Under the pieces are notes generated by a model, which did not search any database, was not told the origin of the DNA, and saw nothing but the letters and a program-made list of their open reading frames with translations. Below are positions 3,310 to 39,869 of a stretch of 64,000 nucleotides of DNA, piece by piece. The position numbers were made by a program, and so were the translations under genes. Source of the DNA: Escherichia phage vB_EcoM_VR7; sequence record NC_014792.1. One strand, given 5' to 3'. The number at the start of each line of letters is the position of its first letter. The first letter of the stretch is position 1.

Positions 3310-3566
3310 TGGATGATTTATTTGAAGCCATTAAATCAAACGACCTCGTAGCCGTTCGCAAATATTTTGCTGAAAACATTGGCCCAGTATGCGGTAGTTT
3401 GATTCAAGAACGTAAGATTGAAATTGCACGTTCCATCATGATTGAAGGCGAAGAGCCTAAAGAAGATGATGAAGACAAGGACGACGACAAAGCAGAAAAG
3501 AAAGACAAAAAAGAATCTGACGACGCTGACGAAGGTGACGACGATGAAGATGAGGACGATGAATAA
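3309..3566 (+). CDS. 67: Prohead core protein gp67
   Basis: 85 aa, highly acidic C-terminal tail; position between 20 and 68; start overlaps gene 20 stop. Confidence 0.8.
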
Positions 3567-3994
3567 TGTTTATTATCCCTGATGATTACGAATTAACTCT
3601 TGAAAACATCGAAAGTGTTTCCGAAGAAGCTCAGGGACAATTTGATTCATTATCCGAAGCCTTAGAAAAAGACGATATAAATATTATTGTAGAAAACATG
3701 TTTGCAGCCGGTGAATATGAAAAAGCAACGGTTATCGGCGCACTGAATGAAGGTGTTCAGCTTAACGAATTTATCGTTAAACATGTATCGTCTCGCGGTG
3801 AGTTAACCCGCACAAAAGACCGAGCTACTCGTAAGCGTAATGCTTTCCAAACAACTGGTCTTTCTAAAGCTAAACGTCGTCAAATTGCCCGACTGGCTAC
3901 TAAAACGAAAAGAGCAAACCCATCTACGCAAATCAGAGCAGAGCGCAAGCGCAAAAAAGCTCGAGCTAAGCGTAAAGCATTCGGACTTGATTAA
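3566..3994 (+). CDS. 68: Prohead core protein gp68
   Basis: 142 aa, basic C-terminus; position between 67 and 21. Confidence 0.75.
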
Positions 3995-4664: not shown

Positions 4665-5483
4665 ATGCTTAAAGAACAACTCATTTCTGAAGCTCAAAAC
4701 ATCGATGCTTCCGTTGCTCTCGATAGTATTTTCGAATCAGTTAATTTGTCCCCGGAAGCGAAAGCTACCTTCGGCACTGTATTCGAAGCTACCGTCAAGC
4801 AACACGCCATCAAACTGGCAGAATCTCACATTCACGCCATCGCTGAAAAAGCTGAAGAAGAAGTCGAAAAGAATAAAGAAGAATCCGACGAAAAAGCAGA
4901 GAAAAAACTGAAAGAATCTGCAGCTAAATTCCTGGACCACGTTGCTAAAGAATGGCTTGCTGAAAACAAACTGGCTGTCGACCGTGGCATTAAAGCTGAC
5001 CTGTTCGAATCCATGTTTACCGGCATGAAAGAACTGTTCGTTGAGCACAACGTTGTTGTTCCAGAAGAATCTGTTGATGTTGTTGCAGAAATGCAGGAAG
5101 AACTGGCTGAACAGAAAGAAGAAACCGCTAGTCTATTCGAAGAAGTTTCTAAGCGTGATGCTTATATCAATTATGTCCAACGTGAAGTTGCGTTGACTGA
5201 AGCGACCAAAGACCTGACCGAATCTCAGAAAGAAAAAGTTGGTTCTCTGGTAGAAGGTATGGATTATTCCGATGCGTTCGGTACCAAAATTGGCGCTATC
5301 GTTGAAATGGTTAAAGGTCAGGTAGACACCACCGAAAAACCTATCACCGAAGCAGCTATAAATAATTCTGTAGACGATGCTGCGGCACTGAATTACATTT
5401 CAGAAGCAGTTGAAGAAAAAGGCGCCAAGCCTACCCTGTCCTTCGCGGACTTGTCTGCTCTCGCAGCATCACGAATTTCTTAA
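4665..5483 (+). CDS. 22: Prohead core scaffold protein gp22
   Basis: 272 aa, acidic and helical with E/K-rich repeats; late promoter upstream; position before gene 23. Confidence 0.88.
   Translation: MLKEQLISEAQNIDASVALDSIFESVNLSPEAKATFGTVFEATVKQHAIKLAESHIHAIAEKAEEEVEKNKEESDEKAEKKLKESAAKFLDHVAKEWLAENKLAVDRGIKADLFESMFTGMKELFVEHNVVVPEESVDVVAEMQEELAEQKEETASLFEEVSKRDAYINYVQREVALTEATKDLTESQKEKVGSLVEGMDYSDAFGTKIGAIVEMVKGQVDTTEKPITEAAINNSVDDAAALNYISEAVEEKGAKPTLSFADLSALAASRIS
5355..5366 (+). promoter_or_regulatory. Late promoter for gene 23, embedded in the 3' end of gene 22
   Basis: Exact TATAAATA ~140 nt upstream of the gene 23 ATG, inside the gene 22 coding sequence. Confidence 0.65.
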
Positions 5484-5504: not shown

Positions 5505-7064
5505 ATGAAAAAGAATGCATTAGTTCAAAAATGGTCCGCTCTGCTGGAAAACGAAGCTCTTCCTGAAATCGTTGGTGCTTCTAAACAAGCTATCATCGCT
5601 AAAATCTTTGAAAACCAGGAACAAGATATCCTGACCGCTCCAGAATACCGTGACGAAAAAATCTCCGAAGCATTTGGTTCTTTCCTGACCGAAGCTGAAA
5701 TCGGTGGTGACCATGGTTATGATGCTACCAATATCGCCGCTGGCCAGACCTCTGGTGCAGTAACTCAGATTGGGCCGGCAGTTATGGGTATGGTTCGTCG
5801 TGCTATCCCGCATCTGATTGCGTTTGATATTTGTGGCGTACAGCCTCTGAACAACCCGACTGGCCAGGTATTTGCCCTGCGTGCAGTTTACGGTAAAGAC
5901 CCTGTAGCTGCTGGTGCTAAAGAAGCTTTCCACCCGATGTATGCTCCGAACGCTATGTTCTCCGGTCAGGGTGCTGCTGAAGCTTTCGAACCTCTGGCTG
6001 CAAGCAAAGTTCTTACCGTTGGTAAAATTTATTCTCACTTCTTCGAAGCAACCGGTTCCGCACACTACCAGGCCGTTGAAGCTGTAACCGTTGATGCCGC
6101 CGCTACTGATGCTGCTAAACTTGACGCTGAAGTTACCAAACTGCTCGAAGCTGGTAAACTGGCAGAAATCGCTGAAGGTATGGCTACCTCTATCGCCGAA
6201 CTGCAGGAAGGTTTCAACGGTTCTCAGGATAACCCGTGGAACGAAATGGGCTTCCGCATCGATAAACAAGTTATCGAAGCTAAATCCCGTCAGCTGAAAG
6301 CAAGCTACTCTATCGAACTGGCACAGGACCTGCGCGCTGTTCACGGTATGGACGCTGATGCCGAATTGAGTGGTATTCTGGCTACTGAAATTATGCTGGA
6401 AATCAACCGCGAAGTTATCGATTGGATTAACTACTCCGCACAGGTTGGTAAATCTGGTATGACCAACACCGTTGGCGCTAAAGCTGGTGTGTTCGACTTC
6501 CAGGACCCGATTGATATCCGTGGTGCTCGTTGGGCTGGTGAAAGCTTCAAAGCTTTACTGTTCCAGATTGATAAAGAAGCCGCTGAAATCGCTCGTCAGA
6601 CCGGTCGTGGTGCAGGTAACTTCATCATCGCTTCCCGTAACGTAGTTAACGTACTGGCTGCAGTTGATACCTCTGTATCTTATGCTGCTCAGGGTCTGGG
6701 TAAAGGTTTCAACGTTGACACCACTAAAGCCGTGTTCGCTGGTGTTCTGGGTGGCAAATACCGTGTCTACATCGACCAGTATGCTCGCGCAGATTACTTC
6801 ACCATCGGTTACAAAGGCGCTAACGAAATGGATGCTGGTATCTACTACGCACCATATGTTGCACTGACCCCGCTGCGTGGCTCTGACCCGAAAAACTTCC
6901 AGCCAGTTATGGGCTTCAAAACCCGTTACGGTATCGGTATTAACCCGTTCGCTGACCCGGCAGCTCAGGCTCCGACCAAGCGTATTCAAAACGGCATGCC
7001 GGACATCGTTAACAGCCTCGGCTTGAACGGTTACTTCCGTCGCGTATATGTTAAAGGAATTTAA
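5505..7064 (+). CDS. 23: Major capsid protein gp23
   Basis: 519 aa; very strong codon bias; position and size as T4 gp23; followed by a strong terminator. Confidence 0.97.
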   Translation: MKKNALVQKWSALLENEALPEIVGASKQAIIAKIFENQEQDILTAPEYRDEKISEAFGSFLTEAEIGGDHGYDATNIAAGQTSGAVTQIGPAVMGMVRRAIPHLIAFDICGVQPLNNPTGQVFALRAVYGKDPVAAGAKEAFHPMYAPNAMFSGQGAAEAFEPLAASKVLTVGKIYSHFFEATGSAHYQAVEAVTVDAAATDAAKLDAEVTKLLEAGKLAEIAEGMATSIAELQEGFNGSQDNPWNEMGFRIDKQVIEAKSRQLKASYSIELAQDLRAVHGMDADAELSGILATEIMLEINREVIDWINYSAQVGKSGMTNTVGAKAGVFDFQDPIDIRGARWAGESFKALLFQIDKEAAEIARQTGRGAGNFIIASRNVVNVLAAVDTSVSYAAQGLGKGFNVDTTKAVFAGVLGGKYRVYIDQYARADYFTIGYKGANEMDAGIYYAPYVALTPLRGSDPKNFQPVMGFKTRYGIGINPFADPAAQAPTKRIQNGMPDIVNSLGLNGYFRRVYVKGI

Positions 7065-7084: not shown

Positions 7085-7115
7085 AAAGGGACCCTTGAGG
7101 TCCCTTTCTTGTTTT
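7085..7115. terminator. Rho-independent terminator after gene 23 (possibly bidirectional)
   Basis: gggacc-cttga-ggtccc hairpin flanked by an A-run and a T-run. Confidence 0.8.
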
Positions 7116-7396
7116 CATACCATACCATTTAAATGAACTTCTACCCGGCGCTTGATGAGGTCTCTGAAATTAACACTGTTCTCTTGAAGTTTCAACCAGT
7201 TACCTGATTTGTCTTTGGTGTGTGTAGAATAATTACCATTCCACCAAAAATCAGTATCATATGCTAAGTTTTCATATTTTTTAACTAGTTTGTTCAGAGC
7301 ATTACCATTAACACCATTTGGGTATTTGTTGACCAATGCAACAACTTCAATTTCCAGATTTTTAAAGGTATTCCGAAGGAAAGATACTTTGTTCAT
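7115..7396 (-). CDS. Hypothetical protein (93 aa from internal ATG; ORF track gives 97 aa to 7408)
   Basis: Opposite strand to the late genes; GGAG SD before the ATG at 7396; early-type promoter (GTTTAC, ~18 nt, CATAAT) directly upstream. Confidence 0.4.
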   Translation of the reverse strand: MNKVSFLRNTFKNLEIEVVALVNKYPNGVNGNALNKLVKKYENLAYDTDFWWNGNYSTHTKDKSGNWLKLQENSVNFRDLIKRRVEVHLNGMV

Positions 7397-7430
7397 TTTA
7401 GACTCCATTGTTTGGTAACTCAGTATGAAA

Positions 7431-7464
7431 TCATTATGTCTTATCTTAATCGGGTTGTAAACAA
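7431..7464 (-). promoter_or_regulatory. T4 early-type promoter for the 7115..7396 ORF
   Basis: Minus strand reads GTTTAC, ~18 nt, CATAAT. Confidence 0.55.
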
Positions 7465-7466
7465 CT

Positions 7467-7478
7467 TTTATAAATAAA
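7467..7478 (+). promoter_or_regulatory. Late promoter for gene 24
   Basis: Exact TATAAATA ~25 nt upstream of the gene 24 ATG. Confidence 0.7.
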
Positions 7479-7501
7479 GTATATCACAAAAGGAAAGCGC
7501 A

Positions 7502-8782
7502 ATGGCAAAGATTAACGAACTGCTGCGCGAGTCAACTACTACATCCAGCAACTCATTAGGCCGCCCGAATCTTGTTGCTTTGACCCGCGCTACAACTAAA
7601 TTGATTTACCGCGATATCATCGCTGAACAACGTACTAACCAGCCTGTTGCTGCGCTGTACGGTGTTAAATATATTACTCCTGATAATGAATTCAGTTTCC
7701 AGACTGGTGCTACTTATGGTGGTGAAGTCGGTTCTAAAGACCGTACAACTATTCCAGAATTAGCCACAGCTACTCAGCCTGTTGCTAAAGGCGAATATGT
7801 AAAATATCAAAATATCGTTTACAAAGCTCTGGTGGATAATCCATTTGCAACGACTACAGAAACAGTATTATCTGATGTTCTACAGGAAGGTCTTATTGCA
7901 TCGACTATTCGTTTAGTTCCTGATGCAGCGCATACCGAGAAATTTGAAGCCGGTGATGTTGAAATTAGCAACGCCGTGTTCCAGGTTAATAAATGGAATG
8001 CTCCTGTTAAATCCCGTAAATTGAAAACTGCACTGACTGTTGAACTTGCTCAGGATATGGAAGCAAACGGTTTTAATGCTCCTGCTTTCCTGGAAGACCT
8101 GCTTGCAACTACCATGGCAGACGAAATTAACAAAGATGTTCTGCAGTCTCTGATTACCGTTTCCAAGCGTTATAAAGTCGCTGGCATTTCTGATAAAGGT
8201 TTCATCGATTTGACATATGATTCAGCTCCAGAAGGCGCACGTAAACTGTACGAACTGGTTTGCGAAATGAACTCTGAAATTCAGAAAACTACATCTTACT
8301 CTGGTACATTCGTTGTTGCCTCAAGTCGTGTGGCCGCGATGCTCGCCGGTTCCGGCTGGTTGAAACATAAACCTGAAGATGAACAATGGCTCCCGGAAAC
8401 CGCGTACGGCTATTTGATTAATGGTCTTCCTGTATTCTGTGATGTTAACAGTCCATTGGATTATGTAACCGTTGGCGTTAAAGAAAATTACGGTGGAAAC
8501 GAAGTCGTAGGCTCAATCTTCTATGCTCCTTATACCGAAGGCCTGGACTTAGATGATGAAGAACACGTAGGTGCGTTTAAGGTCATTGTGGACCCAGACA
8601 GCTTGCAGCCATCTATCTCCCTGATGGTTCGTTATGCACTTTCAGCCAACCCTTATACCGTTGCTAAAGACGACAAAGAAGCTCGTATTATCGATGCAAC
8701 TAATATGGATTTAATGGCCGGCCAGAGCAACATGTCTTATCTGCTCGGTGTTAAACTTCCACCAATCATTTATGAGGCGTAA
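7502..8782 (+). CDS. 24: Capsid vertex protein gp24
   Basis: Near-identical N-terminus to T4 gp24 (MAKINELLRESTTT...GRPNL...TRATTKLIY) and conserved blocks (KSRKLKT, VELAQD, EINKDVLQSLITVSKRYKV, ANPYTVAKDDKEARIID). Confidence 0.95.
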   Translation: MAKINELLRESTTTSSNSLGRPNLVALTRATTKLIYRDIIAEQRTNQPVAALYGVKYITPDNEFSFQTGATYGGEVGSKDRTTIPELATATQPVAKGEYVKYQNIVYKALVDNPFATTTETVLSDVLQEGLIASTIRLVPDAAHTEKFEAGDVEISNAVFQVNKWNAPVKSRKLKTALTVELAQDMEANGFNAPAFLEDLLATTMADEINKDVLQSLITVSKRYKVAGISDKGFIDLTYDSAPEGARKLYELVCEMNSEIQKTTSYSGTFVVASSRVAAMLAGSGWLKHKPEDEQWLPETAYGYLINGLPVFCDVNSPLDYVTVGVKENYGGNEVVGSIFYAPYTEGLDLDDEEHVGAFKVIVDPDSLQPSISLMVRYALSANPYTVAKDDKEARIIDATNMDLMAGQSNMSYLLGVKLPPIIYEA

Positions 8783-10066
8783 ATGCAAAAGATTAACGCA
8801 CTAATTCACGAATCAACATTAACGGCGGCCAACCAGGTCGCCCGTCCTAATTTGCTTTCTTATACTCGGGCTACGAATAAACGAATTTTTAAAGCTCTTG
8901 TGGCCGAACAGAAAACTACTCAGCCAGTCGCAGCGCTGTATGGCGTTCGTGTTCTGAACCCAGATGATAAAATGACTTATCTTGGTGGAGCAACATTTGC
9001 AGGCCAGATTGGTATGTTCGAGCGTAAGAATATTCCAGAATTTACGAACAAAGACGAAGCTTATGCAGTCGGCGACATGTTCCAGTTTGAAAGCATTGTA
9101 TTCAAAGCTTTGGAAGCTTCTCCTTTTGCCGGGACCCTCGAAACTGATTTGGGTGAAGTTATTTCTGAAGCCATTGCGGCTGGCCATATAAGAATGATGT
9201 CAGATGCGGCTTTCACTGATAAATTTGAACAAGGACATCCTGAAATTGCTGAAGCCGGTTTCCGTATCGATAAATGGCAGACTGAAGTTAAATCTAGAAA
9301 ACTGAAAACCTCTTTAACTGTTGAGCTTGCGCAGGACCTGGAAGCAAATGGTTTCGATGCAACAGACTTCATTGATAATATCCTCGGTATTCAAATGGCA
9401 GAGGAAATTAATAAGGACGTACTGCAATCTTTAATTACCGTAAGTTCACGTTTTAAAGTCCAGGGTGTTTCCGAAAAAGGTGTACTTAATCTTACTGATG
9501 CCGCTTATGATAATGCTCAGGACCGTGCTCGAACTCTGTATTATTATATGTGCGAAATGAATTCCGCAGTTCAACGTCAGACTTCGTTCGCTGGTACATA
9601 TGCAGTCGCTTCTTCCCGTTGTGCAGCTATTTTAGCCGCTTCTGGCTGGGTTGAGAAAAAGGAAGACCAAGATGAATTGGCCTATGGTGTTCTGAAGAAC
9701 GGTTTGCCACTTTATGCAGATATGAATAGCCCGTGCGATTATGTTATTGTTGGTGTAAATGCTGATATGGGTGAAGGTCAGACGGTCGCATCTTTGTATT
9801 ATGCGCCTTATACGGAAGGTCTTAGTGAAGTTGATGATGAAGGTGACACCTCGGTTGGGGAATTCAAGGTTATTGTTGACCCTGAAAGTTTACAGCCTAC
9901 AGTTGCACTGTTAGCTCGTTATGCACTGACTGCGAACCCTTATACCGTTGCTAAAGACGATAAAGAAGCTCGCATTATTGATGGAGCTGATATGGATAAG
10001 ATGGCTAACCAAAGCCAATTGAGTTCTTATCTTGGTGTTAAACTTCCACCACTGGAAAAAGAATAA
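8783..10066 (+). CDS. Second gp24-like capsid vertex protein (tandem paralog)
   Basis: 427 aa; shares the same conserved blocks as gp24 but is diverged overall (~55% identity by eye); start 1 nt after gene 24 stop; terminator follows. Confidence 0.9.
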   Translation: MQKINALIHESTLTAANQVARPNLLSYTRATNKRIFKALVAEQKTTQPVAALYGVRVLNPDDKMTYLGGATFAGQIGMFERKNIPEFTNKDEAYAVGDMFQFESIVFKALEASPFAGTLETDLGEVISEAIAAGHIRMMSDAAFTDKFEQGHPEIAEAGFRIDKWQTEVKSRKLKTSLTVELAQDLEANGFDATDFIDNILGIQMAEEINKDVLQSLITVSSRFKVQGVSEKGVLNLTDAAYDNAQDRARTLYYYMCEMNSAVQRQTSFAGTYAVASSRCAAILAASGWVEKKEDQDELAYGVLKNGLPLYADMNSPCDYVIVGVNADMGEGQTVASLYYAPYTEGLSEVDDEGDTSVGEFKVIVDPESLQPTVALLARYALTANPYTVAKDDKEARIIDGADMDKMANQSQLSSYLGVKLPPLEKE

Positions 10067-11678: not shown

Positions 11679-11815
11679 GGTGAGTTAGGGAAGCTATCTT
11701 AACATGGAATTTTTAACTTGTAAACAGGAGTTTTATGCCAGATATTCTTGAACGTAAAGATTTACTTTACAACCGCCACTACCTTAATAAATATTAAATT
11801 AATAACGGAGGATTT

Positions 11816-26132: not shown

Positions 26133-26166
26133 ACATTGTATCGCACTTCCTTGTGCTTGTAAACCC
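26133..26166 (-). promoter_or_regulatory. Early-type promoter for the 25813..26103 ORF
   Basis: Minus strand reads GTTTAC, 18 nt, TACAAT. Confidence 0.5.
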
Positions 26167-32898: not shown

Positions 32899-33014
32899 TT
32901 TATTCTCCAGTGTTTTATTGTGTAACTCAGTATGGAATCATTATGCACTGGACCAACCCTGTTGTAAACCCCTTTATGGAAAATAAAAAAAGGGACTCCG
33001 AAGAGTCCCTGAAC

Positions 33015-39696: not shown

Positions 39697-39761
39697 AATA
39701 GTTTCCTCAAATATTTTATAATCCGTAGGAGCATTATACTCTGCTCCCAAGAGTTTGTAAA

Positions 39762-39869
39762 CTACTTACCAAAAAGACCATCAATACACATGCTGAATAC
39801 AATTCCAAAACAAAAGCATGCAAAACCCAATCTAAAAACATCCCAGCCATCGATACAGGCTTCAATCAT
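39762..39869 (-). CDS. Putative small hydrophobic membrane peptide (35 aa)
   Basis: Manually translated: MIEACIDGWDVFRLGFACFCFGIVFSMCIDGLFGK; strong GAGGAG SD ~7 nt upstream; start overlaps the last codons of the o-spanin gene. Confidence 0.3.
   Translation of the reverse strand: MIEACIDGWDVFRLGFACFCFGIVFSMCIDGLFGK

Follow-up and report, generated by a model that had tools for sequence, protein, structure and literature searches.

What is the minus-strand gene that lies between the capsid genes 23 and 24 of Escherichia phage vB_EcoM_VR7, and how does it relate to segD of phage T4? An earlier note had claimed that T4 carries segD at the 23/24 junction, which proved correct, T4 segD being on the strand opposite to the capsid genes, and had offered two alternatives for the VR7 gene, a segD remnant or an unrelated early gene. 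The question was addressed by computational analysis of a window of 64,000 nucleotides of the VR7 genome (NC_014792.1), to which positions refer unless a locus of another phage is named.

Organization of the Gene 23–24 Junction

The region shows 97.6% identity to Escherichia phage vB_EcoM_VR26 (Gaprivervirus, Tevenvirinae), and the gene order is that of VR26: gp20, 67, 68, 21, 22 and 23, a minus-strand "hypothetical protein", two gp24 paralogs and rnlB. From the ORF list and the VR26 annotation, gene 23, encoding the major capsid protein, occupies 5505..7064 on the plus strand, and gene 24, encoding capsid vertex protein I, 7502..8782 on the same strand. The second gp24 paralog (8783-10066) directly abuts gene 24. 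Tandem abutting paralogs of this kind (here 7502-8782 and 8783-10066) are also present in VR26, JS10 and IME08, and a single gp24 is found in Mosigvirus ST0 and T4.

Terminator scanning and folding located an intrinsic terminator at 7085..7109 (GGGACC-loop-GGTCCC with an A-run and a T-run). This hairpin is GC-rich with U-runs on both strands, as in bidirectional rho-independent terminators, scored on both strands (−15.9 and −17.0 kcal/mol, z −3.6 and −4.2), and serves gene 23 on the plus strand and the small ORF on the minus strand. A hairpin is found at the equivalent position in JS10, ST0, IME08, T4 and 23/24 junctions that carry no gene. An Rfam search of the locus gave just sub-threshold sRNA matches, over the terminator.

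The mechanical ORF call on the minus strand was 7115..7408, 97 amino acids from the first ATG, four codons earlier than 7396. This first ATG (7408) overlaps a GGAG Shine-Dalgarno sequence at 7403..7406 (minus strand), which was read from the sequence and is kept as GGAG/GAGG in the alignment of upstream regions. The ATG at 7396-7394 has the GGAG 6 nt upstream, gives a protein of 93 amino acids and is kept as a start (M-N/T-K) in all the relatives aligned. The small ORF thus spans 7115..7396 on the minus strand, stop codon included, as defined by the ORF list, a profile match to phrog_6003 and dN/dS. A plus-strand ORF of 42 amino acids at 7290-7418 was dismissed as a by-product of the gene on the opposite strand.

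The 93-aa minus-strand ORF claimed in the earlier note was accordingly present (7396..7115, with its GGAG Shine-Dalgarno), and so were the two elements said to flank it, the terminator acting in both directions (7085-7109) and the late promoter of gene 24 (7469-7476). Its description there as an antisense gene was right as to orientation, which is opposite to that of the capsid genes, but the transcription unit stops at the hairpin short of gene 23 and is clear of both capsid genes, so that the ORF is antisense in orientation alone.

Early-Type Promoter and Late Promoter

A promoter of its own, GTTTAC/CATAAT, had been claimed for the ORF. Promoter scanning and alignment found it on the minus strand, with the −35 element GTTTAC at 7457..7462 (7462-7457), 18 nt, and the −10 hexamer CATAAT at 7433..7438 (7438-7433), and its position is kept across genera. 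Read in the register TTTACA (7461-7456)-17-CATAAT, it matches 10 of the 12 consensus positions, and its −35, spacer and −10 are those of a T4-type early (sigma-70) promoter. Six copies of the pattern GTTTAC-N18-NANNAT are present in the window, every one on the minus strand, versus 0.98 expected (maximum of 3 in 100 shuffles), and this enrichment and strand bias place the small-ORF promoter in a genuine class of strand-biased motifs. The remaining copies are located on the minus strand at 11696-11725, 26135-26164, 32940-32969, 39733-39762 and 8217-8246, the last one inside gene 24, and four of these five begin with GTTTACAA. These copies probably mark further early promoters, although the one within gene 24 (8217-8246) may be due to chance. 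Inspection of the sequence revealed no TGCTT MotA box near −30 of the small-ORF promoter.

The late promoter motif TATAAATA was counted 19 times in the window versus 4.8 expected. The copy assigned to gene 24 by sequence reading, motif count and alignment (7469..7476, plus strand) lies 26 nt 5′ of the gene 24 ATG and back to back with the GTTTAC −35 element. Its reverse forms an A/T tract upstream of the −35, where the UP element of the divergent early promoter would be.

The stretch from the start of gene 24 to the start of the ORF was aligned for the window, JS10, ST0, IME08 and T4. The late promoter and GTTTAC were invariant, T4 having ATTTAC, and the −10 was found at a fixed distance as CATAAT in the window, TACTAT in JS10, ST0 and IME08, and TATTAT in T4. 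An extended −10 (TGn) is present in JS10, ST0, IME08 and T4 but not in the window; the strength of the window promoter is uncertain, since its CATAAT lacks the TGn of the relatives and begins with C. Early promoters of T4 have been described as UP/−35/TGn/−10 (PMC2988021), and the consensus of the early-promoter cassettes in T4/PST is TTTACW-N17-TAYWAT (PMC4122927). The promoter of the relatives, with its TGn, fits both descriptions.

Family and Selection

The small ORF matched the phrog_6003 profile of PHROGs, labelled "function unknown", with an E value of 2.3e-49, residues 1-90 aligning on positions 1-90 of 90, and the same profile was matched by all ten of ten diverse relatives. Homologues were detected by tblastn in 236 phage records. 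Identity to the window copy was 91-100% in Gaprivervirus, about 65% in Dhakavirus (JS98, JS10, Bp7, IME08) and about 38% in Mosigvirus (JS09, ST0, moskry); in the loci inspected from these three genera the gene was always at the 23/24 junction and on the opposite strand. Two more T4-like lineages, both metagenomic, carry it at the same junction. When 1.84 billion representative proteins were searched exhaustively with the family profile, only about six genuine clusters emerged, all of 84-93 amino acids. The long matches of this search (P0009-P0015) were rejected as repeat proteins matching low-complexity NGN/SGNW strings. P0011, a metagenomic protein of 160 amino acids, has a 32-aa family stretch, ALVKKYETMAYATDFWWNGEYSTHTKD, fused to unrelated sequence and most likely represents a chimera produced by assembly or gene calling.

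Pairwise dN/dS of the small ORF, restricted to unsaturated pairs, was 0.07-0.33. It is the fastest-diverging gene of its neighbourhood: between the window and JS10 it shows 65% identity versus 87-97% for gp22/23/24, and between the window and ST0 37% versus 70-84%. The earlier note had made its proposal depend on conservation of the ORF, which the 236 phage records and this range of dN/dS bear out; judged by its sequence, the small ORF is a real gene under purifying selection.

No Pfam domain was found in the ORF and no GIY-YIG, in agreement with the lack of a visible GIY-YIG motif already remarked; the sole DUF5380 match (12 bits versus a cut-off of 29) was sub-threshold. DUF5380 was also checked as a neighbouring T4 family (24.2, 24.3, uvsY.-1, uvsY.-2), which it is not. 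NCBIfam and PADLOC gave scattered single-member matches with E > 0.002, and an HMM search of six-frame ORFs detected no paralog in the window. A literature search by accession, phrog identifier, and genus plus RNA-seq retrieved no publication on the small ORF.

An Optional Module at the Junction

The comparison of 23-24 junctions that had been proposed as a check was carried out, and showed the ORF kept in Gaprivervirus, Dhakavirus and Mosigvirus, and other junctions empty or with segD. Within the Tevenvirinae four states are found: empty, ORF only, segD only, and ORF plus segD. Empty junctions are those of most Tequatrovirus, of Jiaodavirus and of other Klebsiella phages, and segD alone is present in T4 and some relatives. 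In the empty junctions of Tequatrovirus G8 and Jiaodavirus UTI-K4 the hairpin comes after the gene 23 stop, and about 17 nt further on lie TATAAATA and then gene 24. Since nothing but these two signals, terminator and late promoter, is present in them, the early-type promoter with its ORF represents an insertion or deletion of about 360 bp between the two.

Tequatrovirus 310Ecol104PP holds a Dhakavirus-type copy of the ORF (3501-3767 of the locus), which is frameshifted and annotated as a 64-aa protein. Two lesions disrupt the copy, a small deletion and a duplication of 10 nt in tandem (aaaatccaag, twice). The finding of a broken Dhakavirus-type copy in a Tequatrovirus background points to lateral acquisition followed by decay.

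Copies outside T4-Like Phages

A copy with 36% identity was found in "Acinetobacter phage ABPH49" (MH533020.1, Vequintavirinae), amid small genes with no assigned function; the only sigma-70-like match there, TTATCA-17-TATAAT, is about 255 nt upstream of the gene. The record belongs to the Vequintavirinae, the rV5-like coliphage group, yet its listed host is Acinetobacter baumannii. The ABPH49 copy is about 41% identical to the Dhakavirus version versus about 32% to the Mosigvirus version. A second copy, 30% identical, is part of a long same-strand array of small genes on the metagenomic contig L008, with TTGAAT-17-TATTAT about 50 nt before the gene and a hairpin behind it. We read L008 as rV5-like from this gene array, no taxonomic marker having been identified on it. 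A third copy lies on a siphovirus-like contig directly after J-type tail genes, with a terminator at 4869-4892, a promoter (TTGACG-17-TG-TATATT) at 4915-4943 and the gene at 5001 of that contig.

A sigma-70-type promoter therefore stands directly before the gene in three of four contexts (the T4-like phages, L008 and the siphovirus). Comparison of the neighbourhoods revealed no neighbour gene common to the non-T4 contexts, from which it follows that the gene travels alone. The gene is thus mobile between unrelated phage types.

Properties and Predicted Structure of the Protein

The product (10.9 kDa, pI 9.6) is basic and soluble, and the family is hydrophilic, of about 10 kDa and pI 8.0-9.8. 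No catalytic motifs were seen in the small protein, which is related neither to SegD nor to the capsid proteins encoded on either side of it. AlphaFold2, run on a 10-sequence alignment, gave a model with pLDDT 90 and pTM 0.73, composed of helix 3-24, helix 31-48, a beta-hairpin (52-61 and 67-71) and helix 77-89. The residues K3, F6, L14, L21, N30-G31-N32, N35, A45, S57, G65 and Q71 are invariant or nearly so, and the NGNxxN cluster falls in the loop and the beginning of helix 2 of the predicted model. For the ABPH49 homologue (34% identical in one comparison), a BFVD model obtained independently superposed with TM 0.86-0.90. The AlphaFold2 model had no fold match to any solved structure, and the best hit of a sequence profile search of the PDB was a C2-domain protein (4rj9, E 0.079), with de novo helical bundles close behind.

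Expression Signals of T4 segD

On the minus strand of T4 (NC_000866; 1234-1323 of the locus), segD is preceded by ATTTACA, 17 nt, TGaTATTAT and CAAAC-GGAGT-gatgtt-TAAAATGAA. The counterpart in the window (7397-7501) reads GTTTACA, 17 nt, CATAAT and then CAAACaatGGAGTcTAAAATGAA. T4 segD therefore appears to sit behind the promoter and leader of the small-ORF cassette and seems to have taken these signals over. According to a 2010 review, a segD promoter was not found and "vanishingly low" transcripts were expected (PMC2988022). In a 2022 omics study T4 segD RNA was classed as early and the SegD protein was quantified (PMC9697503, supplements). Early segD RNA and detected SegD would fit an active promoter at T4 segD, and the position of segD behind the cassette promoter would explain both despite the 2010 review.

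M1 of IME08 SegD aligns with M4 of T4 SegD (1222-1233 of the T4 locus versus 2543-2545 of the IME08 locus), and at the annotated T4 SegD start (MFKMKY) the Shine-Dalgarno sequence is just 2 nt away. Judged from this alignment, T4 SegD more probably begins at its second ATG (MKYLIY).

Proposed Role

The likeliest role that we infer for the product is that of a non-essential early protein binding a host component. The sequence comparisons show an optional, self-contained cassette, made up of the early-type promoter, a leader, the 93-aa gene and the terminator, in the space that separates the gene 23 hairpin from the late promoter of gene 24. The host sigma-70 RNA polymerase would fire the GTTTAC/CATAAT promoter right after infection, a leader of about 30 nt with GGAG would drive translation, and the transcript would end at the hairpin common to gene 23. 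The small basic protein would then act stoichiometrically by binding an E. coli macromolecule early in infection, and would be an accessory factor of host takeover or counter-defence, useful to the phage and not essential.

Early timing is suggested by the promoter type and by the T4 data on the homologous promoter. Host binding is suggested by a protein that is small, basic and free of an enzyme signature, by its patchy spread, mostly in E. coli/Shigella phages, and by its fast divergence. The description as a cassette with an early gene is very probable, and the host-directed binding role is tentative. The combined statement of a self-contained optional early unit, whose product binds a host macromolecule, is considered reasonably probable.

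A more specific proposal, in which the protein would be an early effector of new fold neutralising an E. coli-specific component (for instance a defence system, or a factor associated with the nucleoid or with RNA polymerase), seems to us rather unlikely, though conceivable. If it were true, the fast divergence and the spread over T4-like, rV5-like and siphoviral coliphages would represent an arms race, and the promoter and leader would be a reusable "expression socket", hijacked by SegD in T4. The profile of the family, with a confident predicted structure that has no fold relative and with promoter-bearing mobility, is that of the small host-directed or anti-defence proteins that are now sought. 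In itself the gene is an ordinary optional early ORFan cassette, already present as "hypothetical protein" in GenBank relatives and already included in PHROGs.

Alternative Explanations

None of the alternatives was favoured over the early-cassette explanation. The gene could be tied to the mobility of SegD, as a landing pad or target region or as a co-converted helper. In Dhakavirus IME08 the minus strand carries the promoter, the small ORF (2549-2830 of the locus), segD (1874-2545) and the terminator, and segD starts 3 nt past the small-ORF stop in an apparent operon. The pairing of ORF and segD is also annotated in mobillu, F2, the LF82 phages (LF82-1/7/33) and JM10. Such tandem operons in several Dhakaviruses, together with the fusion of T4 segD to the promoter and leader of the cassette, speak for a link between the two genes, but most of the 236 carriers are devoid of segD, the family extends beyond the T4-like phages, and the target of SegD is unknown (PMC2988022). 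We consider this link improbable.

A point against the early-cassette explanation is that the place between the capsid genes is kept in at least five T4-like lineages (Gaprivervirus, Dhakavirus, Mosigvirus and the two metagenomic ones), which could mean a head-related role, the product modulating the expression or assembly of gp23/gp24. The promoter, however, is divergent and of the sigma-70 type, not late; most Tequatrovirus and the Klebsiella T4-like phages do without the gene despite having the same capsid genes; and the rV5-like and siphovirus copies are away from capsid genes. The gene is also independent of the gp24 duplication, ST0 having one gp24 and JS10 two. A head-related role is held to be quite improbable.

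It might also be that the promoter is what counts and the ORF is incidental, an early RNA reading into gene 23 in antisense. Such "anti-late" RNA is a known phenomenon of T4, the promoter is directed at gene 23, and T4 keeps it though its cargo differs. Against this, a strong hairpin terminator separates the ORF from gene 23, the dN/dS of the ORF is well below 1 with its Shine-Dalgarno and start conserved, and the family is kept in unrelated phages that have no downstream capsid gene; we give this explanation little credence.

The segD-remnant alternative of the earlier note, by which the small ORF would be a degraded GIY-YIG endonuclease of the segD type, for example its C-terminal DNA-binding part, did not survive the comparison. 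It draws on the equal place and orientation of T4 segD and on the homology of the promoter and leader to those before T4 segD, and is contradicted by the protein itself: BLASTP against T4 SegD gave an E value of 4.3, that is no similarity, no GIY-YIG or other domain was found, and the ORF is under purifying selection. Decisive is IME08, where the SegD encoded beside the ORF is an intact protein of 223 amino acids that shares 56% identity with T4 SegD along its entire length; the same tandem is present in other Dhakaviruses. Coexistence of the ORF and an intact segD at one locus is at odds with the mutual exclusivity expected of a remnant, and the family also occurs in phages with no nearby seg gene. 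A remnant is thus very hard to credit and is refuted at the sequence level. The other alternative of that note, an unrelated early gene, is supported by the results, namely no SegD similarity, a family of its own (phrog_6003) and a T4-early-type promoter conserved in position across genera.

The remaining suggestion, a chance ORF in an intergenic spacer, could invoke the many long spurious antisense ORFs of the window (such as one of 274 amino acids opposite gene 23), but is refuted by conservation and has next to no probability in view of the Shine-Dalgarno, promoter and terminator, of an intact frame even in homologues of just 30% identity, of the dN/dS of 0.07-0.33 and of the confident fold prediction.

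Comparison with Known Systems

With the T4 segD locus the VR7 locus shares the junction, the opposite strand, the terminator and the late promoter, and the −35/−10 and leader are homologous. It differs in its cargo, which has 93 amino acids and no nuclease motif in VR7 and 223 amino acids with GIY-YIG in T4.

The nearest concept in the literature is that of the ORFan cassettes with a promoter of their own in the hyperplastic regions of T4-type phages, termed PeSL for promoter-early stem-loop (Arbiol et al. 2010, PMC2839356; Comeau et al. 2014, PMC4122927), and, in a wider sense, the moron. In a PeSL, as in the present unit, a short ORFan, a stem-loop and an early promoter of TTTACW-N17-TAYWAT type occupy a plastic spot of the conserved core. 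The presence or absence of the ORFan between close relatives, as in the empty, ORF, segD and ORF+segD junctions, is a further likeness. PeSL is, however, a composite in which the stem-loop directly precedes the promoter, whereas the sole stem-loop here follows the ORF. No hairpin was found 5′ of the −35, where the late promoter and the start of gene 24 are located instead, and in this respect the locus is not a PeSL composite. The window promoter also differs in abutting a divergent late promoter and in a −10 that starts with C. The rV5-like arrangement of L008 is nearer to PeSL.

The unit is like a moron in having its own promoter and terminator, in lying between genes that are adjacent in relatives and in being present in unrelated phages as well, and the terminator-promoter-gene arrangement following tail gene J in the siphovirus is moron-like. 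In the classical sense, morons are genes of temperate phages and are expressed from the prophage. In contrast, the phage carrying the present gene is strictly lytic, and the gene is presumably expressed early.

From the small early host-directed proteins of T4 represented by AsiA, Arn, Dmd and MotB (PMC2988021) the product differs in resembling no solved structure, either in sequence or in fold, and in having no paralog in the window. It is like them in its size of about 90 amino acids, its sigma-70 promoter, its presumably non-essential character and the lack of an enzymatic motif.
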